Source: a virus
Taxonomy: Duplodnaviria > Heunggongvirae > Uroviricota > Caudoviricetes
Length of the DNA stretch: 36,967 nt
Virus record (IMG/VR): IMGVR_UViG_2531839130_000014
Strand: one strand, 5' to 3'
Position numbers and translations under genes: made by a program
Notes under the pieces: model-generated
What the model was told of the DNA's origin: nothing
The model's input: the letters and a program-made list of their open reading frames with translations, nothing else
Databases searched by the model: none
In this document: positions 3,056 to 15,820 of the stretch, one piece after another
Layout: every line of letters begins with the position of its first letter
Numbering within the stretch: position 1 is the stretch's first letter

Positions 3056-4728
3056 TCAGATGCTCAGTGCTTCAAGACGGCGAAGATCAAAGTCGTTTAA
3101 TTCGTCGGTATAACTTTCGGTAATCGGTGCTGGCCAGTTGTTTGTCTCCAGCGCTTCGTTTATCTGTCGTAGCGTCCGGCGATATTCCTGTCGACCAAGT
3201 TCCAGGAGTTCCTGCGAGGCTTCCACGACTGCCACCCAGTGATAGCCAGCATCTTTGTTGACGAAGATCCAGAAAAATTTGTCCAGGTTTGCCACATCGC
3301 AATACATTGCGGCGCTGAGGTGATAATCACGCTCAATAATTTCACGGTGCAGGCGATCTTTAAGTCGTTCCTGCCGCACATAACCGAGGCTGACTGACTT
3401 CACGTCAGCGCAAATGCTTTCGTATGGCAGCCGGATTTCGATATCAGGACGGACCCTAATTTCCAGCCCGGTTTCTTCATCAAACCCGAAATAGCTGATT
3501 TCAGATTTGCGATCCGGGTGGTTGAGTAGCCTTGCTGCATCGGTATTGTTTTGCAGTGCCGCGTGAATATTTTTTGCCTGTTCATACATATCCGGACTGA
3601 TAAACGTTTTCCCGGCGTTTTCTTCTTGCTGGCGTTTTTGCCAGTCCTCCAGTGTCACCAGGTCCGGGCGAATTTTCCGTGCGATTTCGGTTAATTGCTC
3701 TTTTGTGCCACTGATGTTGTAAGGCAAAGATTTAGCACGTTCTTTTTTTGCCAGTTCTGGGTCTACAGTTTCAATTTGATCCAGAAGCTGCTCCCGTGCT
3801 CCACTGGTTTTCAACAGAGGAGGGAGGCTTGCGTTGTATTCTTTAATACAGGCTTTCATTGCTGATGCTGTGTGTTTTTCCCCCTCAGGAATACGCCGAA
3901 ATTCCTCCGGAAGCGAACCGTAAAGGATGCCTGTTTCTTCGGCCCCAGCGCTTACCGACAGTGGCTGTATAAGAGTGCTGTTGTAGCTTTCGATCCACTC
4001 TTTCATCTGCTCTGGTGTCATCAGTGATGGCAGACTGGCATTATGTTTTTTAATGATGGTGATCAGTTCGTTAGAAGTAGTAACCACATATTCAGGAACC
4101 GGTACCGGAATGGCATATTCATCAGCGAATTTATCCGTTTCCAGAACATAGCTGTGAATGATCCGCCCACGCAGCAATGCATCACTTTCCTCGTTCGGGA
4201 TAGTTCCGGCAATGTGCCGCCCGTGGTAATACATCAGACTGATGCGGGCATCCTTCAGCATTGTGCTGCTTATTCCGTTGGCGGAGTGATAAACCTCGTT
4301 CGGGAGGTTTTCATAGCGACCAGGCTCGAAATATGACGGCCACATGATTTCAGTTGCTACATGAGCTGACGCTTCACCAGTTTCATCACTGCAATCGTGA
4401 TGCGGATGGTTGCCAGCGTTCTCCTTGTGCGGATGTTCAGCGCCTTCCATTTCCTCCGGATCTTTTTCCTGAGATTCATCCAGATTTTCTCCATCGAATG
4501 TTTCCTGGTATGTTGCGTCGCCCATCACCGCACCACAGTCAGGGCAGTTATCCCCGCCAGTCTGACCGCAGGCATTGCAGACTATTTCCGGTTCCCGTTG
4601 CACTACTGGCTCAGGTTGTTTCACATCCTGACTGGTTTTTTCCGTTTCTGGCTGGTTCTGGTTCACAGAATCGCGAGTCTGGATCCCCTTAAACCATTTC
4701 GGATCGTTCGGGTCGCTAATTCCGTCAA
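3056..4728 (-). pseudogene. RecE-like PD-(D/E)XK exonuclease (exodeoxyribonuclease VIII family), C-terminal 557 codons; 5' part apparently removed by the Mu-like insertion
   Basis: The frame is open from the stop at 3056 right up to the Mu-like end at 4729 with no ATG in the first ~70 flanking codons. The first four codons of the listed ORF (GTG start at 4741) are Mu-end sequence, and the next in-frame stop upstream lies inside Mu DNA (4775-4777). Nuclease-like motifs are present (EVYHSANGISSTMLKD, PDIEIR...ADVKS) plus a CxxC...CxxC cluster. Confidence 0.55.
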
Positions 4729-4900
4729 TGTATTGATTCACTTGAAGTACGAAAAAAACCGGGAGGACATTGGATTATTCGGGATTTGGCGGGATTAGAT
4801 TTAGTGGGGCTTGCAAGCCTGTAGGACAGATTTTAGCCGTTACATCTTGAAACGCGAAAGATTGTTGGAAACAGCTTTTGATTCATTAAAGACACGAAAA
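4729..4900. repeat. Mu-type left end (attL) with transposase-binding end sites (L1 at about 4733-4755; further consensus-like sites near 4826-4850 and 4879-4900)
   Basis: Matches to the MuA end-site consensus TGNTTCAYTNNAARYRCGAAAR: TGATTCACTTGAAGTACGAAAAA at the terminus and TGATTCATTAAAGACACGAAAA at 4879-4900. The 5 bp flanking the end (4724-4728, GTCAA) fit the Mu target consensus N-Y-S-R-N. Confidence 0.8.
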
Positions 4901-5067: not shown

Positions 5068-5592
5068 TTATACAGCTTTCTTTACATCGTTTTCTCTTAC
5101 AGGGAAATTATGTTCTTTGCCTTCATACTGAGACAAAATCTCTCTCACTTTTTCCGGTGGTAATGCCTGAAGAGTTTGCAGGGTTTTCTGTTGCTCCACA
5201 GTAATCCCTAATGCCTCTAATGCCTTATCTTTACTGACAATTGTAGGCATAAGTCCTTTAATCCCTGCCACACGAATGATCTCCACAGCTGCGGCCTGCT
5301 CATCTGGTGTTAAGAAGCTCATTGCATAAATTAGCCTCTCATCAACTGTATGGGCGATTGATGTATGCACTGGTTTATCAGAAAGTGAGGCTCCTTTAAT
5401 GGCCCTGCGTGTTTCTTCTGGCAGACTGTTGATGTGATACTCATAAGCGACACCTTTCCCACCGTGACGCTGACGTTTTACCCAATCTTCCGCCACAGCT
5501 TTCCTGGTAATGTTAGTCGCCAACTTTGGTACACCAGGCATCCCTTCCAGCTCTTTCGCATTAAACCATTCTTTGATTTCAAAAGACATCAT
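5068..5592 (-). CDS. c: Mu-type lysogenic repressor (c / Repc-like)
   Basis: Leftward 174-aa ORF next to the left end. Its N-terminus ([60 protein letters not shown]) is clearly homologous to the N-terminus of the adjacent transposase ([59 protein letters not shown]), the known Mu repressor/MuA enhancer-binding relationship. Confidence 0.85.
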   Translation of the reverse strand: MMSFEIKEWFNAKELEGMPGVPKLATNITRKAVAEDWVKRQRHGGKGVAYEYHINSLPEETRRAIKGASLSDKPVHTSIAHTVDERLIYAMSFLTPDEQAAAVEIIRVAGIKGLMPTIVSKDKALEALGITVEQQKTLQTLQALPPEKVREILSQYEGKEHNFPVRENDVKKAV

Positions 5593-6006: not shown

Positions 6007-7995
6007 ATGAAAGAATGGTATACAGCAAAAGAGTTGCTCGGTTTGGCAGGTTTACCAAAGCAAGCCACTAACATTACACGTAAGGCACAAAGAGAAGGCT
6101 GGGAGTTCAGACAGGTTGCAGGGACTAAAGGTGTATCATTTGAATTCAATATCAAATCATTCCCTGTCGCATTACGTGCTGAAATTCTGTTGCAACAAGG
6201 GAGAATTGAAACAAGCCTGGGCCGTTTTGAAATCGCCCGCCCCACGCTGGAAGCCCATGATTATGATCGTGAGGTGCTGTGGAGCAAATGGGATAAAGCC
6301 AGCGATTCCCAGCGCAGACTTGCTGAAAAATGGTTGCCTGCGGTTCAGGCTGCAGACGAAATGCTGAACCAGGGGATTTCAACGAAAACGGCTTTTGCGA
6401 CCGTTGCAGGGCATTACCAGGTCAGCGCATCCACTTTGCGGGACAAGTATTACCAGGTACAGAAGTTTGCGAAGCCTGACTGGGCGGCTGCACTTGTTGA
6501 TGGACGTGGTGCATCCCGTCGCAATGTTCACAAAAGTGAATTTGACGAGGATGCCTGGCAGTTTCTGATTGCAGATTATCTGCGACCGGAAAAACCCGCC
6601 TTCCGCAAATGTTATGAGCGTCTGGAACTGGCAGCCCGCGAGCATGGCTGGAGTATTCCCTCCCGTGCCACGGCCTTTCGCCGGATTCAGCAACTGGACG
6701 AGGCAATGGTTGTTGCCTGTCGTGAAGGTGAACATGCACTGATGCATCTGATACCGGCACAGCAGCGAACTGTGGAACACCTGGACGCCATGCAGTGGAT
6801 CAACGGCGACGGTTATCTGCATAACGTCTTTGTACGCTGGTTTAACGGTGATGTGATCCGCCCGAAAACATGGTTCTGGCAGGATGTGAAAACCCGAAAA
6901 ATTCTGGGCTGGCGCTGCGATGTGAGCGAGAACATTGATTCAATTCGCCTCTCGTTCATGGATGTTGTGACTCGCTACGGTATCCCGGAGGATTTTCACA
7001 TCACCATTGATAACACCCGTGGTGCTGCGAATAAATGGCTGACGGGAGGCGCGCCCAATCGCTACCGCTTTAAGGTGAAAGAAGACGATCCAAAGGGATT
7101 GTTTTTACTGATGGGTGCGAAAATGCACTGGACAAGCGTTGTTGCCGGTAAAGGCTGGGGCCAGGCAAAACCTGTTGAACGTGCTTTCGGTGTTGGTGGG
7201 CTTGAGGAATACGTTGATAAGCATCCGGCACTGGCTGGCGCATATACGGGGCCAAATCCGCAGGCAAAACCTGATAACTATGGCAACCGCGCTGTTGATG
7301 CAGAGCTGTTTCTGAAAAACCTTGCCGAAGGTGTGGCGATGTTCAATGCCAGAACAGGCCGTGAAACAGAAATGTGCGGGGGCAAACTCTCGTTTGATGA
7401 TGTTTTCGAGCGTGAATACGCCAGAACGATTGTGCGTAAGCCAACCGAAGAACAAAAACGGATGCTGTTACTGCCTGCCGAGGCGGTGAACGTTTCACGC
7501 AAAGGCGAGTTTACGCTTAAAGTTGGCGGCTCCCTTAAAGGCGCGAAAAACGTTTATTACAACATGGCATTAATGAATGCCGGCGTGAAAAAAGTTGTGG
7601 TCAGGTTTGATCCGCAGCAGCTACACAGCACGGTTTATTGTTACACCCTGGACGGTCGGTTTATCTGTGAAGCGGAATGTCTGGCACCTGTTGCGTTTAA
7701 TGATGCTGCGGCAGGCCGTGAATATCGCCGCCGCCAGAAACAACTGAAATCTGCGACGAAAGCAGCGATTAAGGCACAGAAACAAATGGATGCACTGGAA
7801 GTGGCAGAGCTGCTGCCGCAGATAGCCGAACCTGAAGCACCAGAATCACGAATTGTCGGCATTTTCCGGCCTTCCGGTAATACGGAACGGGTGAAGAATC
7901 AGGAGCGTGATGATGAATACGAAACTGAGCGTGATGAATATCTGAATCATTCGCTGGATATTCTGGAACAGAACAGACGTAAAAAAGCCATTTAA
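6007..7995 (+). CDS. A: MuA-type DDE transposase
   Basis: 662-aa ORF (Mu A is about 663 aa). It has the repressor-like N-terminal DNA-binding domain, a central catalytic region and a basic C-terminal tail, in the Mu position after ner. Confidence 0.93.
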
Positions 7996-8033
7996 TTAAC
8001 GTTTAAACAAAATTTAATTACGAGGTTATTCAG

Positions 8034-8972
8034 ATGAATATTTCCGATATTCGCGCAGGACTGCGCACGCTTGTAGAAAATGAAGAAACCACCTTTAAAC
8101 AAATTGCTCTTGAGAGCGGACTTTCTACCGGAACTATCAGTAGTTTTATCAATGATAAGTACAACGGGGATAACGAGCGTGTTTCACAAATGCTGCAACG
8201 CTGGCTGGAAAAATATCATGCAGTTGCAGAACTACCTGAACCGCCCCGCTTTGTGGAAACGCAGACGGTAAAACAAATCTGGACAAGTATGCGTTTTGCC
8301 AGCCTGACTGAAAGTATTGCTGTTGTATGTGGCAATCCTGGTGTGGGCAAAACCGAAGCGGCCCGTGAATATCGCCGCACCAATAACAATGTCTGGATGA
8401 TCACCATTACGCCATCCTGCGCCAGTGTTCTGGAATGTCTTACTGAACTGGCGTTTGAGCTGGGAATGAATGACGCACCACGCCGTAAAGGGCCACTTTC
8501 CCGTGCCCTGCGACGTCGCCTTGAAGGTACACAGGGGCTGGTTATCATCGACGAAGCTGATCATCTTGGTGCCGAAGTTCTGGAAGAACTCCGCCTGTTA
8601 CAGGAATCAACCCGCACTGGCCTTGTGCTGATGGGAAATCACCGGGTTTATTCAAATATGACGGGGGGTAACAGAACGGTTGAATTTGCCCGTCTGTTTT
8701 CCCGTATTGCAAAGCGCACTGCAATTAATAAAACAAAAAAAGCCGATGTAAAAGCTATTGCGGATGCCTGGCAGATTAACGGCGAAAATGAACTGGAGTT
8801 ATTACAGCAGATTGCGCAGAAACCAGGTGCGCTTCGCATTCTGAATCATTCACTTCGCCTTGCCGCCATGACGGCTCACGGTAAAGGTGAGCGTGTTAAC
8901 GAAGATTATCTGCGTCAGGCTTTCCGTGAATTAGACCTGGACGTTGATATTTCAACGCTGCTGCGTAATTAA
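8034..8972 (+). CDS. B: MuB-type AAA+ ATPase, transposition target-DNA activator
   Basis: 312-aa ORF with Walker A GNPGVGKTEA and Walker B-like LVIIDEADHL. N-terminus MNISDIRAGLRTLVENEETTFKQIALESGLSTG matches recalled Mu B. Confidence 0.9.
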   Translation: MNISDIRAGLRTLVENEETTFKQIALESGLSTGTISSFINDKYNGDNERVSQMLQRWLEKYHAVAELPEPPRFVETQTVKQIWTSMRFASLTESIAVVCGNPGVGKTEAAREYRRTNNNVWMITITPSCASVLECLTELAFELGMNDAPRRKGPLSRALRRRLEGTQGLVIIDEADHLGAEVLEELRLLQESTRTGLVLMGNHRVYSNMTGGNRTVEFARLFSRIAKRTAINKTKKADVKAIADAWQINGENELELLQQIAQKPGALRILNHSLRLAAMTAHGKGERVNEDYLRQAFRELDLDVDISTLLRN

Positions 8973-10488: not shown

Positions 10489-11013
10489 ATGGCTAAACCA
10501 GCAAAACGTATCAAGAGTGCCGCAGCGGCTTATGTGCCACAAAACCGCGATGCGGTGATTACCGATATTAAACGCATCGGGGATTTACAGCGCGAAGCAT
10601 CACGTCTGGAAACGGAAATGAATGATGCCATCGCGGAAATTACGGAGAAATTTGCGGCCCGGATTGCACCGATTAAAACCGATATTGAAACCCTTTCAAA
10701 AGGCGTTCAGGGATGGTGTGAAGCGAACCGCGACGAACTGACGAACGGCGGCAAAGTGAAGACGGCGAATCTTGTCACCGGTGATGTATCGTGGCGGGTC
10801 CGTCCACCATCAGTAAGTATTCGTGGTATGGATGCAGTGATGGAAACGCTGGAGCGTCTTGGCCTGCAACGCTTTATTCGCACGAAGCAGGAAATCAACA
10901 AGGAGGCGATTTTACTGGAACCAAAAGCCGTCGCAGGTGTTGCCGGAATTACGGTTAAATCGGGAATTGAAGATTTTTCCATTATTCCGTTTGAACAGGA
11001 AGCCGGTATTTAA
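10489..11013 (+). CDS. gam: Gam, Mu-type host-nuclease inhibitor (Ku-like DNA-end-binding protein)
   Basis: 174-aa ORF starting MAKPAKRIKSAAAAYVPQNRDAVITDIKRIGDLQREASRLETEMNDAIAEI, matching recalled Mu Gam; AGGAG RBS at 10475-10479. Confidence 0.85.
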   Translation: MAKPAKRIKSAAAAYVPQNRDAVITDIKRIGDLQREASRLETEMNDAIAEITEKFAARIAPIKTDIETLSKGVQGWCEANRDELTNGGKVKTANLVTGDVSWRVRPPSVSIRGMDAVMETLERLGLQRFIRTKQEINKEAILLEPKAVAGVAGITVKSGIEDFSIIPFEQEAGI

Positions 11014-11111: not shown

Positions 11112-11651
11112 ATGGTTGATGCAAAAATTCTGAATGGTGTCAGCACATTATTACGGGCTTACGGACGCCTGACCTGCGGGGTTCTGGCTGAAAAAATGCA
11201 GATGCCACCCTCCGCAATGGTGTATTTCCTGCGTGATGCGGTTGATGCCGGAGTGCTCACCGAATGCAACGGATTTTATGACGTTCCGCGCCCGCGTCAG
11301 ACGCCGCCGGTAAGACGAAACGCAACTGAGCAGCCTGCTGTTGATGATGCGGTGTGGTGCAACTGGCGTCGCTCATTACCCTGGGTGGAAGGTAATACCA
11401 TCCCCGCACTGGCAAAAGAGTTTGCGACAGGCGTACTGACCTGTGAGTCCGTTCACATCGTTGCAGAAGTGGATGACGAGATGTGCAAACAGGGAATGCC
11501 CCGTTTTGTGATGGCTTATATCGATATCCGGCTGGGGCGGTTTATTTGCAGTTCCAGCGCCTGGAATATCACCGACCATGTACTGCGTTATCTCATCATT
11601 GATTTTTCATCAGCACCGGGTGTGGTGCAGGAGGCTGGTTGTGAAATTTGA
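11112..11651 (+). CDS. Hypothetical early protein
   Basis: 179-aa ORF with GAGGAATAAAAC upstream; no recognisable domain. Confidence 0.45.
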   Translation: MVDAKILNGVSTLLRAYGRLTCGVLAEKMQMPPSAMVYFLRDAVDAGVLTECNGFYDVPRPRQTPPVRRNATEQPAVDDAVWCNWRRSLPWVEGNTIPALAKEFATGVLTCESVHIVAEVDDEMCKQGMPRFVMAYIDIRLGRFICSSSAWNITDHVLRYLIIDFSSAPGVVQEAGCEI

Positions 11652-12336
11652 AGACTGGGGTATTGATAAAAGTTGTGGCCGGGACGTCCTGGTGTACAAA
11701 AACTGTAGCGTGATTGAAGGAGAAGATGCCTGGCAGGTTCTGGATATACTTCGTTCTGCTTTATGCAGAGCTGGCTATGTTACGCCAGCGTCAGTTAATG
11801 GCGGAACTGCCACTACCTGTATCAGAAAGCAACTTTATAGTTTTTATACAGCCTACAACCGATGGTTAAAGAATGGGGCAATGGAGACGGGCGATGATGT
11901 ATTTACCCGGGCTGCCGGATTATGTGCCAATGCTTACGATTATTTTGAATCAACCGGTGCAGACAGTGAAGCCGCATTAGAACAATTACATGCGGACTTT
12001 ATCTCAGCAGGGCTGAATGAGAAATTGCCATTTAACCGGGACAGCAAACATTACAGAAACGAAAGCAAATTGGCCAGATGCCACCTGAATTCAGCACGTG
12101 TGGCATGGGTTGAAAAACACTGTATTAGTTCTGATTCAGAAATAACGGGGAAAAAGACAGTCGGTGAAAATTCGTATTCGTGGCTGGGGACATTCACCAC
12201 GGTGAAACAGGAATGCCCGACCTGCGGTAATGAAAACCCTGAATATCTGAAAGAGTGCCCTCATTGTGGTGGGCAGAAATGCAACCACTGCGATATGGGC
12301 GATGACACGGCGTGCATGAATTGTGAAGGTGAGTGA
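11641..12336 (+). CDS. Hypothetical early protein with C-terminal zinc-ribbon-like Cys cluster (start uncertain)
   Basis: Long ORF (listed from 11578) ending CPTCGNENPEYLKECPHCGGQKCNHCDMGDDTACMNCEGE. A GTG at 11641 overlapping the upstream stop is a plausible start. Confidence 0.4.
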   Translation: MKFEDWGIDKSCGRDVLVYKNCSVIEGEDAWQVLDILRSALCRAGYVTPASVNGGTATTCIRKQLYSFYTAYNRWLKNGAMETGDDVFTRAAGLCANAYDYFESTGADSEAALEQLHADFISAGLNEKLPFNRDSKHYRNESKLARCHLNSARVAWVEKHCISSDSEITGKKTVGENSYSWLGTFTTVKQECPTCGNENPEYLKECPHCGGQKCNHCDMGDDTACMNCEGE

Positions 12337-12337
12337 T

Positions 12338-12649
12338 ATGAATAATGGTGTATTTTCAAAATCAGAAGAGCTTGCCGCCCTGCTGATTGCCGGTGGTTTG
12401 CCGAAAAAAGAAGTGCATGACTTTGTGAATTTTGTATATGAGCCGTCTCATGAAAAAGCTATTGATGAAGTCATGGCGTACCGGTTTGGCATTATTGCTG
12501 AGTCACTGAGTCCTCACTGGATTATTGAAAATCTCCGCACTATTGCTGATGGTAACGATAAAGTGGCGGCTGTCGCCGCCCTTGATGTGCTGCAACGTAT
12601 GAACCGGGAACTATTCAATCCCGAGTTTCTTTTTAAGAAACGAGGTTAA
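12338..12649 (+). CDS. Hypothetical early protein
   Basis: About 103-aa ORF; the ATG at 12338 overlaps the upstream stop region. Confidence 0.45.
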   Translation: MNNGVFSKSEELAALLIAGGLPKKEVHDFVNFVYEPSHEKAIDEVMAYRFGIIAESLSPHWIIENLRTIADGNDKVAAVAALDVLQRMNRELFNPEFLFKKRG

Positions 12650-13027
12650 CCACTGTTTGCCGACGTCTGTTACGAGCGTCATCGGGGCGTCGGCAAGGTC
12701 CTGTTTTATGCGCTCAAGAATGGGTTTTTGATGTAGTGCTTTCGCAAAATCATGACCATCTTGTGTAAGTCTGACACTGGTGCCTGAATATGAATATCCG
12801 AGGCTTGTTGGGGTGAGACCAATGCTTTTTGCGGTGCCTGTTTCCAGATATCTGTTGCTGATAAAACCATTTTCAACCAGCAACAGAAGATGGAAAACCA
12901 GCTTCTGATGGCTGTCGCTGTGCCGCTGAGAACGCTCCCAGCCGACATCTTCCAGTCGAATGAATGCGGTGTCGGCCTCCAGAAAAACATCAAATATTCT
13001 GGCTATCTCGTCATAATCAATTTTCAT
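12611..13027 (-). CDS. Hypothetical protein encoded antisense to the early operon (possible DUF2513-like; candidate moron)
   Basis: 138-aa minus-strand ORF with balanced, globular-looking composition (MKIDYDEIARIFDVFLEADTAFIRLEDVGW...). AAGGA lies about 8 nt upstream of its ATG on the minus strand. Its start is 30 bp from the gemA start and its 3' end overlaps the upstream plus-strand gene convergently. Confidence 0.5.
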   Translation of the reverse strand: MKIDYDEIARIFDVFLEADTAFIRLEDVGWERSQRHSDSHQKLVFHLLLLVENGFISNRYLETGTAKSIGLTPTSLGYSYSGTSVRLTQDGHDFAKALHQKPILERIKQDLADAPMTLVTDVGKQWLTSFLKKKLGIE

Positions 13028-13057
13028 ATCTCATTCCTTAATATGAGAGGTGAGCAA

Positions 13058-13609
13058 ATGAATCGCACATCGCTTATTAAATTAATCCATGTCGCCCGTC
13101 GGGAGCTACAACTCGACGATGACACTTACCGCGCCTTTCTGATGCAGAAAACGGGCAAAACCAGTTGCCGCGAGCTGACGGTTACGCAACTGGAACAGAC
13201 GCTCGATGCAATGAAAGAACGCGGCTTTAAGAAGCTGAATAAACATCCACGTCGCCGCTTTAAGGAACATGTCACGCCCCGCGAGAAGGTGTACAAAGTC
13301 TGGCAGCAGATGGCAGAAGACGGTTTTATTACCGATGGCGGTGATGTGGCGCTGGATAAATATGTTCAGCGCCTGACCGCGAAACGCAACGGCGGACAGG
13401 GCGTTTCCACACTGGCGTGGTGTCATGGCGACACGCTGCTGACAGTCCTCGAAACACTCAAGCAGTGGCACATCCGCTGTATTCGTGAAGCCTTTTCCCG
13501 TCACGGGCTTCCATTGCCGGTCAGTCCGTCCGGTCGTGAACTGCGCGGCTATGATGCCATGACGGCGGCTTATGCCCATGCCAGAAAGACGCGGAGGATG
13601 GCACAATGA
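13058..13609 (+). CDS. gemA: GemA-like protein (Mu gp16 family)
   Basis: ORF starting MNRTSLIKLIHVARRELQLDDDTYRAFLMQKTGKTSCRELT with GAGAGG RBS at 13045-13050, immediately upstream of mor as in Mu. Confidence 0.75.
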   Translation: MNRTSLIKLIHVARRELQLDDDTYRAFLMQKTGKTSCRELTVTQLEQTLDAMKERGFKKLNKHPRRRFKEHVTPREKVYKVWQQMAEDGFITDGGDVALDKYVQRLTAKRNGGQGVSTLAWCHGDTLLTVLETLKQWHIRCIREAFSRHGLPLPVSPSGRELRGYDAMTAAYAHARKTRRMAQ

Positions 13610-13995
13610 CGGAAGATTTATTTGGTGATTTGCAGGATGACACCATCCTGGCACATCTTGACAATCCCGCAGAGGATACGTCACGCTTTCCGGCACTGCT
13701 GGCGGAGCTGAACGATTTACTACGCGGGGAATTGTCCCGGCTGGGTGTTGATCCTGCCCATTCACTGGAGATTGTTGTGGCTATCTGTAAGCATCTGGGC
13801 GGCGGTCAGGTCTACATTCCACGCGGTCAGGTTCTGGACTCGCTGATTCGGGATTTGCGTATCTGGAATGATTTTAACGGTCGCAACGTCAGCGAACTGA
13901 CCACCCGTTATGGTGTCACTTTCAATACGGTTTACAAGGCCATTCGCCGGATGCGACGGCTGAAATACCGCCAGTACCAGCCCTCACTTCTGTAA
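13606..13995 (+). CDS. mor: Mor, middle-operon transcriptional activator (Mor/C family)
   Basis: 129-aa ORF (Mu Mor is 129 aa). Its C-terminal half (FNGRNVSELTTRYGVTFNTVYKAIRR) parallels that of the downstream C protein (FNGRNMEELRRQYRLSQPQIYQIIARQRK). Confidence 0.85.
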   Translation: MTEDLFGDLQDDTILAHLDNPAEDTSRFPALLAELNDLLRGELSRLGVDPAHSLEIVVAICKHLGGGQVYIPRGQVLDSLIRDLRIWNDFNGRNVSELTTRYGVTFNTVYKAIRRMRRLKYRQYQPSLL

Positions 13996-14000
13996 ACAGT

Positions 14001-14026
14001 AAAGCCGGTTAATCCGGCTTTTTTTA
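14001..14026 (+). terminator. Rho-independent terminator after mor (end of early transcript)
   Basis: Hairpin AGCCGG-ttaa-CCGGCT followed by a run of 8 T. Confidence 0.6.
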
Positions 14027-14072
14027 CGTCCTCAATATCCTGTGATGAATAACCGTACCGGGGAAAATCATC
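14027..14072 (+). promoter_or_regulatory. Expected position of the Mor-dependent middle promoter (Pm)
   Basis: Short spacer between the early terminator and the first middle-operon ORF; assignment by Mu synteny only. Confidence 0.3.
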
Positions 14073-14291
14073 ATGGGTAAAGGCTGGAATGCATCCTTTC
14101 ATCTTGGCAGACGTGAGCGGCTGCGTCAGGAGGTTTTGCGCCGTGTCGCCGGTGGGCCACGTCCTGCGCCCCGCGACTATACCGGTCATGATGGCACCCA
14201 CGGCAGTTATTACATGAAAGGCTGGCAGTCAGTTGATATGCCGGAAATTCTTCATCATTGCCTGCTTTACAGGGAGAAACATTATGTCTGA
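14073..14291 (+). CDS. Hypothetical middle-operon protein
   Basis: 72-aa ORF between mor and C. Confidence 0.4.
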   Translation: MGKGWNASFHLGRRERLRQEVLRRVAGGPRPAPRDYTGHDGTHGSYYMKGWQSVDMPEILHHCLLYREKHYV

Positions 14292-14646
14292 GCGTTCTGC
14301 TCGTCAGTGGCCTGATTTTTTATCGGTGGTATTACTGGCGCTGTTATTGTGGATAAGTCTGTTTTGTGGCTGGCGCGCGCTGATGTTTTGCTGTGCCTCG
14401 GTTTTCAGTGTTGCTTTATGTGTTGCCGGTGATTATCTGGATGCGCTGATAATGAGCTGCCGGGTGCCTGAACATTTTGCCCGGTTCGTCTGGCCTCTGA
14501 CCTGGCTGGGGGGGCTGTCCGGGCTGGGATTAGCCGTGATGGCAACGTCTCAACTGAAAACGGGTCCTGAGTATGTCATCTGGGCGCTGGCCGGATTGCT
14601 GACGTTCTGGCTCTCCTTTCGTTTTCGCGCTCGTCTGTTCGGGTAA
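14284..14646 (+). CDS. Hypothetical multi-pass membrane protein (middle operon)
   Basis: ATG at 14284 preceded by AGGGAG. Several hydrophobic helices (LSVVLLALLLWISLFCGW, VFSVALCVAG, WPLTWLGGLSGLGLAVMA, VIWALAGLLTFWLSF). Confidence 0.5.
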   Translation: MSERSARQWPDFLSVVLLALLLWISLFCGWRALMFCCASVFSVALCVAGDYLDALIMSCRVPEHFARFVWPLTWLGGLSGLGLAVMATSQLKTGPEYVIWALAGLLTFWLSFRFRARLFG

Positions 14647-14655
14647 AGGGGCACC

Positions 14656-14775
14656 ATGTACAGAAAATTCAGTGATGAATGTTTCGGGCCGTCCACGCTG
14701 ATTAATGCGATAAAAGTGATTGCCCTTGTGGTTCTGATAACCATCAGTGCCGTGGTGTATCTTTTTGTCTGTTAA
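14656..14775 (+). CDS. Possible 39-aa small membrane protein
   Basis: Short ORF MYRKFSDECFGPSTLINAIKVIALVVLITISAVVYLFVC with one hydrophobic helix, below the ORF-track size cutoff; found by reading the frame. Confidence 0.3.
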   Translation: MYRKFSDECFGPSTLINAIKVIALVVLITISAVVYLFVC

Positions 14776-14787
14776 CCGGGGGAAAAT

Positions 14788-15210
14788 ATGCAGCATGATT
14801 TATTTGAACACGATCCGGCAATTCGCCAGTTAATCGGGCATATTGATAACATCCCGGCCCCGGAACTGGAATCACGCTGGCCCCGTTCAGTGGTTGATCT
14901 GATTGATATTCTGGAAAACGAACTGAAACGCCAGAACGTCAGCAATCCCCGTGAGCTTGCCCGTAAACAGGCCGTTGCCCTGTCCTGTTTTCTGGGCGGG
15001 CGGCAGTTTTACATCCCCTGCGGCGATACGATCCTGACCGCGTTACGCGACGATTTGCTTTACTGCCAGTTCAATGGTCGTAACATGGAAGAACTGCGTC
15101 GCCAGTATCGCCTGTCCCAGCCGCAGATCTACCAGATTATTGCCCGCCAGAGAAAGCTGCATACACGACGTCATCAGCCTGATCTGTTCTCACCTGAAAG
15201 CCCAAAATAA
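14788..15210 (+). CDS. C: C, late-gene transcriptional activator (Mor/C family)
   Basis: 140-aa ORF (Mu C is 140 aa), paralogous to Mor, located before the lysis and morphogenesis genes. Confidence 0.85.
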   Translation: MQHDLFEHDPAIRQLIGHIDNIPAPELESRWPRSVVDLIDILENELKRQNVSNPRELARKQAVALSCFLGGRQFYIPCGDTILTALRDDLLYCQFNGRNMEELRRQYRLSQPQIYQIIARQRKLHTRRHQPDLFSPESPK

Positions 15211-15234
15211 CCGGCATCCTGCCGGTTATTTCCT
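15209..15234 (+). terminator. Putative terminator after C (end of middle transcript)
   Basis: Hairpin AACCGGCA-tcc-TGCCGGTT immediately after the stop, followed by a weak T-rich tract. Confidence 0.45.
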
Positions 15235-15301
15235 GTCACCATAATCCCGCACCTGCCATCTGATTTTTTAGACTGCCATCAGCGCATTTTTTCAGGGAAG
15301 C
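15235..15301 (+). promoter_or_regulatory. Expected C-dependent late promoter (Plys) region
   Basis: Intergenic spacer upstream of lys; assignment by Mu synteny only. Confidence 0.3.
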
Positions 15302-15820
15302 ATGATGGCGGGGATACCAAAAAAACTGAAAGCCGCACTGCTGGCGGCAACGATTGCCGGTGGCGGTGTGGGTGGTTATCAGGAAATGACCCGTCAGTCT
15401 CTGATCCATCTGGAAAATATCGCTTATATGCCTTACCGCGATATTGCCGGTGTGCTTACGGTCTGTGTGGGACATACCGGGCCGGATATCGAAATGCGCC
15501 GTTACAGCCATGCGGAGTGTATGGCTCTTCTCGACAGTGATTTAAAACCGGTTTATGCGGCAATCGATCGTCTTGTCAGGGTGCCGCTGACGCCATATCA
15601 GAAAACGGCGCTGGCAACGTTTATTTTCAACACCGGTGTTACCGCATTCAGTAAATCAACGCTGCTGAAAAAACTCAATGCCGGTGATTACGCCGGAGCG
15701 CGTGACCAGATGGCCCGCTGGGTGTTTGCCGCAGGCCATAAATGGAAAGGACTGATGAACCGTCGCGAAGTGGAAATGGCTATCTGGAATATCAGGGGGG
15801 CGGATGACCTTCGCCAGTAA
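15302..15820 (+). CDS. lys: SAR endolysin (T4-lysozyme-like glycosidase with N-terminal signal-anchor-release segment)
   Basis: 172-aa ORF with N-terminal weakly hydrophobic Gly/Ala-rich segment KAALLAATIAGGGVGGY followed by a lysozyme-like domain; first late gene as in Mu. Confidence 0.8.
   Translation: MMAGIPKKLKAALLAATIAGGGVGGYQEMTRQSLIHLENIAYMPYRDIAGVLTVCVGHTGPDIEMRRYSHAECMALLDSDLKPVYAAIDRLVRVPLTPYQKTALATFIFNTGVTAFSKSTLLKKLNAGDYAGARDQMARWVFAAGHKWKGLMNRREVEMAIWNIRGADDLRQ

Follow-up and report, generated by a model that had tools for sequence, protein, structure and literature searches.

A leftward DUF2513-family gene in the variable slot before gemA of a Mu-like prophage

Gene organization before gemA

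The window, by which we mean the whole stretch of 36,967 nucleotides analysed here (IMG/VR record IMGVR_UViG_2531839130_000014), carries a Mu-like prophage whose left end lies at position 4729. Its plus strand encodes ner, A, B, Gam (10489-11013), GemA and Mor (13606-13995), while the repressor c is read from the minus strand. Directly before gemA lies an open reading frame (ORF) of leftward orientation, which faces gemA at its 5' end and overlaps a plus-strand gene at its 3' end. The features of this region are the following:

12338 (12323)..12649, plus strand: convergent partner gene, phrog_1988 (E 6e-52), 103 amino acids from the ATG at 12338, with its last ~85 nt inside the exchanged cassette
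12563..13050: cassette exchanged relative to SfMu-type prophages, which carry gp14 and a leftward gp15 there; limits from the drop and return of DNA identity
12565..12580, minus strand: GC hairpin GGCGGC-GACA-GCCGCC, 30 nt beyond the stop codon of the leftward gene, in the AAVAAL codons of the partner
12611..12649: convergent overlap of the leftward gene and its plus-strand partner, 39 bp, with 0 substitutions relative to the SE11 allele
12611..13027, minus strand: leftward DUF2513-family gene (phrog_585), 138 amino acids, 15 kDa, product mildly acidic, ATG at 13027
13028..13057: divergent spacer of 30 bp from the leftward ATG to the gemA ATG, with both ribosome-binding sites inside; from alignments
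13035..13039, minus strand: Shine-Dalgarno motif AAGGA of the leftward gene, 7 nt 5' of its ATG; read from the sequence
13058..13609, plus strand: gemA (Pfam GemA, 8e-31); homology to Mu DNA resumes at its ribosome-binding site

The first-pass annotation had described a leftward ORF of 138 amino acids with its own Shine-Dalgarno motif, starting 30 bp from the gemA start and overlapping the upstream gene convergently, and both the coordinates and the AAGGA motif agree with this description. The end coordinate of 13057 given there corresponds to the ORF end at 13027 plus the 30-bp spacer to the gemA ATG. The ORF had also been presented as the sole antisense gene from ner to the tail fibre, and this holds, since the six other long minus-strand ORFs that were tested (193-365 amino acids) have no PHROG match. 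The only other genuine leftward gene of the prophage is repressor c, at 5068-5592.

The leftward ORF is a genuine gene

An allele from E. coli SE11, 95% identical to the leftward ORF, differs from it in the non-overlapping part by eight substitutions, all of them at codon position 3 of the minus frame, of which six leave the amino acid unchanged and the other two exchange E and D. Homologues of the ORF are full length and begin with MKID, and start, Shine-Dalgarno motif and length are conserved down to about 30% identity; in other lineages too, similar Shine-Dalgarno motifs precede the gene. A family profile run against 1.8 billion representatives retrieved 456 clusters at E≤1e-3, nearly all of them single-domain proteins of about 135 amino acids, and the AlphaFold2 model of the protein reaches a pLDDT of 88.5. 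Third-position substitutions, distant full-length homologues, number of clusters and model confidence together establish the leftward ORF as a genuine gene, far beyond what chance would produce. The opposite explanation, a chance ORF or a decaying and functionless shadow of plus-strand coding sequence, could appeal to the long minus-strand shadow ORFs, which are frequent in the window, and to the promoter scan, which found no promoter for the gene. It is contradicted by the same substitution pattern, by the conserved homologues, by the confident structure model and by the fact that positions 12650-13027 are covered by no plus-strand gene, and we consider it extremely improbable.

A divergent branch of DUF2513 with a winged-helix fold

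The N-terminus of the protein had been said to recall loosely DUF2513-type proteins, a resemblance that proves right at the family level. The Pfam model of DUF2513 (PF10711) aligns with residues 39-110 of the leftward protein at 15.9 bits (E 0.017), below its gathering threshold of 29.6 bits, and yet phrog_585 aligns with the protein end to end (E 3e-31) with the same length and domain layout, and identical E. coli proteins are labelled "DUF2513 domain-containing protein" by RefSeq/PGAP. Moreover, 46 of 59 diverse relatives drawn from the family profile match PF10711 at E≤0.01, the best at 9e-15, and precomputed PF10711 matches exist for five close relatives at 54% identity (P0005, P0009 and P0011-P0013) and for P0021 at 48% identity. 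Because the relatives, the PHROG profile and the PGAP name agree despite the sub-threshold Pfam score, we assign the protein, by sequence comparison, to a divergent branch of DUF2513.

DUF2513 (PF10711, phrog_585) comprises uncharacterised winged-helix proteins of bacteria and phages, and the AlphaFold2 model of the leftward protein likewise shows a predicted winged helix of the HTH clan. Residues conserved in the family include H46, D/E52, G70, R86-L-T and G91-H-D-F. Members of the family are acidic, with a median pI of 5.4 and a pI below 7 in 152 of 157, and the helix at residues 38-52, which takes the recognition position in the model, is acidic and hydrophobic, with none of the basic or polar residues that contact DNA. 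These two properties make classical operator DNA binding doubtful, even though the predicted winged-helix fold as such would be compatible with DNA binding too.

The fold resembles that of dimeric winged-helix DNA-binding proteins of the MarR, PadR and F93 types, but the leftward protein has no sequence match to these families. Sequence searches of Pfam, NCBIfam and the PDB gave no match to any regulator family, NCBIfam gave no match of any kind, and Foldseek against the PDB and BFVD returned nothing at E≤1e-3. Candidate PDB sequence matches obtained with two family profiles were discarded as noise. The fold scores are generic, and winged helices that bind proteins (RPA32, kleisins and ORC among them) equal those of the regulators. 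Neither DUF2513 nor PF10711 is mentioned in any paper of the searched literature. With about 450 clusters at 50% identity, none of them characterised, the family offers in this slot and its partner gene a concrete and cheap target for finding a function.

The slot before gemA in Mu, D108 and other Mu-like elements

The first-pass annotation had supposed, with some reserve, that Mu has no leftward gene at this position, and had named beforehand a leftward homologue there in Mu or D108 as the finding that would speak against its reading. The comparison revealed leftward genes at the position and no homology. In the RefSeq record of Mu (NC_000929), the leftward gene Mup15 (gp15; 7896..8162, 88 amino acids) lies in the same slot and on the same strand, head-to-head with gemA at a distance of 70 bp and convergently overlapping gp14. 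The same arrangement of gp14 and leftward gp15 is found in SfMu and in Yersinia phage vB_YpM_5. D108 has an unannotated leftward ORF of 119 amino acids in the gap between gp14 and gemA (NC_013594 7853-8212, minus strand; 1782-2141 of our locus L083), which belongs to phrog_38610 (8e-83) and has a weak phrog_32893 core in common with Mu gp15. The Mu and D108 genes (phrog_8747 and phrog_38610) thus share slot, strand, head-to-head position with gemA and convergent overlap with the DUF2513 gene, but are shorter, and the spacer to gemA, 30 bp in the window, measures 70 bp in Mu and contains a GC hairpin. Homology of the leftward protein to Mu gp15 or the D108 ORF was rejected (BLASTP E 0.24; hhalign probabilities of 0.4% and 1.6%), so that, judged from these searches, the Mu and D108 genes are analogues and not homologues of the DUF2513 gene.

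Annotations of Mu itself differ at this place: the updated GenBank record AF083977 has a plus-strand ORF, Mu_54 (7960-8127), where RefSeq has leftward Mup15, and annotates a "semi-early promoter" at 8151-8217, just 5' of gemA. In a codon-position test of gp15 on the minus strand versus Mu_54 on the plus strand, close alleles differed at too few sites for a decision, and a search of the protein collection returned only gp15 relatives of at least 94% identity. The D108 ORF and the clustering of IMG/VR sequences support the view that gp15 represents a real, diverging family, and comparison of the slot among phages may help to settle whether Mu gp15 is real.

How the slot is filled was surveyed at 79 GemA-bearing IMG/VR loci. 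ORFs of the gp15/D108 type, forming one cluster, occupy 18 of them and DUF2513 genes 13, whereas 27 have no leftward ORF; the others contain small ORFs in mostly singleton clusters with no family match, which are probably shadow ORFs. Among 5,426 complete E. coli genomes, a slot of the gp15 type was found in 32 and one of the DUF2513 type in 5. A profile scan of genome contigs with GemA yielded 9 distant loci only and was uninformative. The slot before gemA is therefore polymorphic and can be filled by the gp15 family or by DUF2513, which makes at least two occupants that are unrelated to each other. It is a standing feature of enterobacterial Mu-like phages, of which the window has the rarer occupant, and the DUF2513 gene is an accessory-gene variant in a variable slot and not a new type of element. 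The functions of the semi-essential early region of Mu, to which the slot belongs, are still largely unassigned.

Acquisition of the gene by cassette exchange

The leftward gene is absent from Mu, D108, SfMu and all other isolated phages in the collection whose DNA is near-identical here. Relative to Mu, DNA homology stops at the stop codon of gp13 and resumes at the ribosome-binding site of gemA. SfMu-type prophages have the order gp13, phrog_1988 gene, gp14, leftward gp15 and gemA, and relative to them homology fades within the final ~85 nt of phrog_1988 coding sequence and resumes at the Shine-Dalgarno motif of gemA; three arrangements of the slot were seen among the Mu-like loci compared. 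The C-terminus of the phrog_1988 protein in the window resembles the allele that adjoins DUF2513 in another E. coli prophage (L007-type). These break points and this resemblance indicate that the gp14-gp15 block was replaced by a cassette, and the comparison shows that the cassette, made up of the DUF2513 gene and the 3' end of its phrog_1988 partner, was acquired by homologous exchange. As a consequence of the replacement, a 30-bp spacer stands in for the ~70-bp spacer of Mu with its annotated semi-early promoter and GC hairpin (AF083977).

Morons are additional genes that have come to lie within an operon of a temperate phage, between its other genes, and that bring expression signals of their own. 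The proposal that the DUF2513 gene is one of them finds support in its presence or absence among close relatives at a discrete exchange point, in its site at an operon boundary and in relatives that occupy moron positions of lambdoid prophages. Other properties depart from the definition: the GC content of the gene (0.45-0.49) is like that of the adjacent early genes, so base composition is not deviant, no promoter or terminator of its own was detected, and it moves as part of a two-gene convergent pair.

A separate difference from Mu was seen upstream, at 11578-12336, where gp12 is replaced by unrelated sequence (~11639-12171) that continues in frame into the zinc ribbon of gp13 to give an ORF of 252 amino acids. 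A prophage of E. coli 22KM0354 has a near-identical DUF2513 cassette and yet keeps gp12 and gp13 of the Mu type, which makes the replacement of gp12 in the window a second, independent mosaic exchange.

The convergent partner and the genomic contexts of the family

The partner protein is all-alpha, with a poor AlphaFold2 model (pLDDT 58) and a weak motif resembling RuvA domain III and UBA domains at its N-terminus. It was compared with Mu gp14 and no homology was detected. Neither the partner nor the leftward protein has a match at E≤1 among the defence models of PADLOC-DB 2.0.

Prophages of E. coli and Salmonella, as well as viral contigs of IMG/VR, show the same order of a plus-strand partner, a leftward DUF2513 gene and a plus-strand gemA, with DUF2513 proteins that are only 40-62% identical. 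By profile search, 11 of 25 DUF2513 clusters have the partner as their convergent neighbour downstream, a count that uses downstream neighbours only, as a shadow ORF inside gemA, longer than gemA itself, confuses the calls of upstream genes. In the other 14 clusters DUF2513 is found without the partner, and in SfMu-type phages the partner is found without DUF2513. The pair also occurs in other myoviruses, between the baseplate spike gene (gpV apex motif) and the genes of the sheath initiator and baseplate J; there the partner reads with the baseplate operon and DUF2513 against it, which reproduces the geometry of the Mu-like early operons. A further copy of the pair lies 3' of two genes for Arc-like ribbon-helix-helix proteins. 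With recurrence in three unrelated genomic contexts, the phrog_1988/DUF2513 pair is portable, the convergent overlap is not incidental since the plus-strand neighbour travels with the DUF2513 gene, and the gene was probably exchanged as part of this two-gene pair.

More distant relatives reside elsewhere. One of 48% identity lies antisense between the Q antiterminator and holin genes of a Serratia lambdoid prophage, and relatives of 27-34% identity, co-oriented with the genes around them, occur near xis/int or in the interval from lysis to terminase genes. In marine metagenome contigs (L078 2899-5106 and L079 2828-5035), a relative of 40% identity is placed directly upstream of a CBASS operon, which encodes a CD-NTase cyclase and the Cap15 (2TM) effector; PDC-S19, SymE and an antitoxin belong to the same island. 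The link of the family to known defence systems consists of this association. Neighbourhoods of all these kinds are typical of accessory genes or of genes engaged in conflict.

Expression signals

The first-pass annotation had proposed a leftward promoter inside gemA, and this part of it found no support: a scan for consensus-like promoters found no site of sigma-70 type on the minus strand from 12200 to 15500, gemA included. Scans of both strands over the same interval and of three related loci gave nothing convincing for the leftward gene, and the spacers, at 20-30 bp in several lineages, are too short to contain a promoter carried by the cassette itself.

Downstream, the hairpin at 12565..12580 possibly forms the 3'-end structure of the putative leftward mRNA; its T-tail is weak, and the AAVAAL codons of the partner impose most of its sequence. 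Mu-like lineages retain the hairpin (also at 6441-6458 of L008), even in alleles that are not followed by DUF2513, and it is absent where the peptide motif differs; one synonymous compensatory change was observed (GCG/GCC to GCA/GCT). No convincing terminator was found for the leftward gene. On the other side, in relatives of the Salmonella type (L008 5952-5971, operon strand) the leftward gene and gemA are separated by a strong intrinsic terminator, GGCGGTG...CACCGCC plus a T-run, which is preceded by a promoter-like site, and the Mu spacer (~3370-3400 of L001) contains a similar hairpin with a weak tail, which the window does not have. The terminator and hairpin between the leftward gene and gemA in these relatives mark the slot as an operon boundary.

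The literature search found no transcriptome of a Mu lysogen. Published work cited in PMC3820752 reports constitutive expression of the gem operon in lysogens.

Possible functions of the leftward gene

The reading that we prefer, and that we regard as evenly poised between right and wrong, is that the accessory DUF2513 gene, placed leftward in the gemA slot, encodes a protein binder engaged in conflict, which is made in lysogeny and damped after induction. The gene, whose variable slot lies where the Pe early operon borders on the gemA-mor unit, would be transcribed independently of Pe, so that its product would be made while the operon is repressed; upon induction, head-on early transcription would damp it. 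The protein would act by binding another protein, or possibly a nucleic acid of an unusual kind, in conflict of the phage with its host or with other phages. Protein binding seems more likely than the action of a classical operator-binding repressor because no enzyme-like domain is present and because of the acidic, hydrophobic character of the predicted recognition helix. The sense-strand partner, whose production is presumably limited to lytic growth, may counteract the leftward protein or complement it.

We infer expression in the lysogen, head-on damping and a role in conflict from the geometry of the locus, from the family neighbourhoods and from the analogy with the Tha/Ith noncontiguous operon of Staphylococcus phage 80alpha, in which the antisense gene is an inhibitor lying inside the lysogeny operon (PMC11087260). 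Both systems place a small antisense gene in a phage operon, from which expression of sense and antisense genes in opposite states of the life cycle would follow, and Tha/Ith offers the logic of pairing a factor expressed in the lysogen with a counterpart of the lytic phase. They differ in that Tha/Ith is unrelated in sequence to the DUF2513 pair and that its antisense gene lies in a lysogeny operon, whereas here it lies in the lytic early operon.

Several results weigh against the conflict reading. The scans revealed no sigma-70 consensus promoter in 12200-15500 and the 20-30 bp spacers could accommodate none that is cassette-borne; neither a convincing terminator nor a PADLOC match was obtained, and GC content resembles that of the neighbours. 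The partner and DUF2513 each occur alone as well, the modelled fold would suit DNA binding, and the searched literature is silent on DUF2513. The gene might instead encode a local regulator, a winged-helix protein that would bind the spacer or 5' regions and control the "semi-early" gemA-mor unit and itself, replacing the displaced promoter region. MarR and PadR regulators are often divergently encoded, the model has a MarR/PadR-like fold, and many diverged Mu-like lineages preserve the head-to-head position with gemA; what the cassette replaces is exactly the stretch of Mu annotated as semi-early promoter, and phages of the L008 type have a promoter-like site and a strong terminator between the two genes. 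We nevertheless find this regulator unlikely, given the acidic family and a modelled recognition helix that seems devoid of DNA-contacting residues, the lack of sequence match to any regulator family, and the occurrence of the pair in a baseplate operon and of relatives next to CBASS or in the interval from Q to holin, sites that are all remote from any gemA.

The gene might also encode a factor of the lytic phase for counter-defence or host takeover, an early binder with its own promoter that inhibits a host protein, its antisense orientation being incidental. The small size, acidity and single domain of this phage protein, together with its lack of an enzymatic motif, would fit such a role, as would the hypervariability of the slot, expected of arms-race genes, and the semi-essential early region of Mu does hold host-directed functions such as Gam and Kil. 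But a position head-on to a strong early operon would hamper expression exactly when the factor is needed, and the relatives are found in moron sites of prophages and in a chromosomal defence island, not in strictly lytic phages, which leaves this role with a small share of the probability.

A more specific form of the conflict reading, built on analogy and in our view rather improbable, would make the pair a portable conflict module in which a winged-helix protein made in the lysogen blocks or senses incoming phages and the lytic-phase partner neutralises it, as a mirror image of Tha/Ith governed by a head-on switch. If this were true, the gemA slot would be a defence hotspot of Mu-like phages, with gp14/gp15 as an alternative system, and the logic of noncontiguous operons would reach from Staphylococcus phages to enterobacterial transposable phages; if it were false, the DUF2513 gene would be one more uncharacterised accessory gene.

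Additional observations

Two inverted repeats were noticed within the region. A perfect 9-bp repeat, TTGCCGACG / CGTCGGCAA, at 12657-12665 and 12688-12696 with 22 nt between its arms, lies in the 3'-terminal part of the leftward ORF, immediately beyond the stop codon of the partner, and a second one, of 10 bp, is located at 12851-12887. At the left end of the prophage, a flanking minus-strand ORF of 561 amino acids (3056-4741) runs 13 bp past position 4729 into the prophage end (4729-4741; left-end sequence 4729-4751), an extension which suggests that the prophage interrupts a host gene. Finally, the DUF2513 gene is present at 97.9% identity in CP088505.1 (33434-33811), a 52-kb E. coli sequence filed as a non-mobilizable plasmid, and this copy may belong to a Mu-like element that exists on, or as, an extrachromosomal contig.
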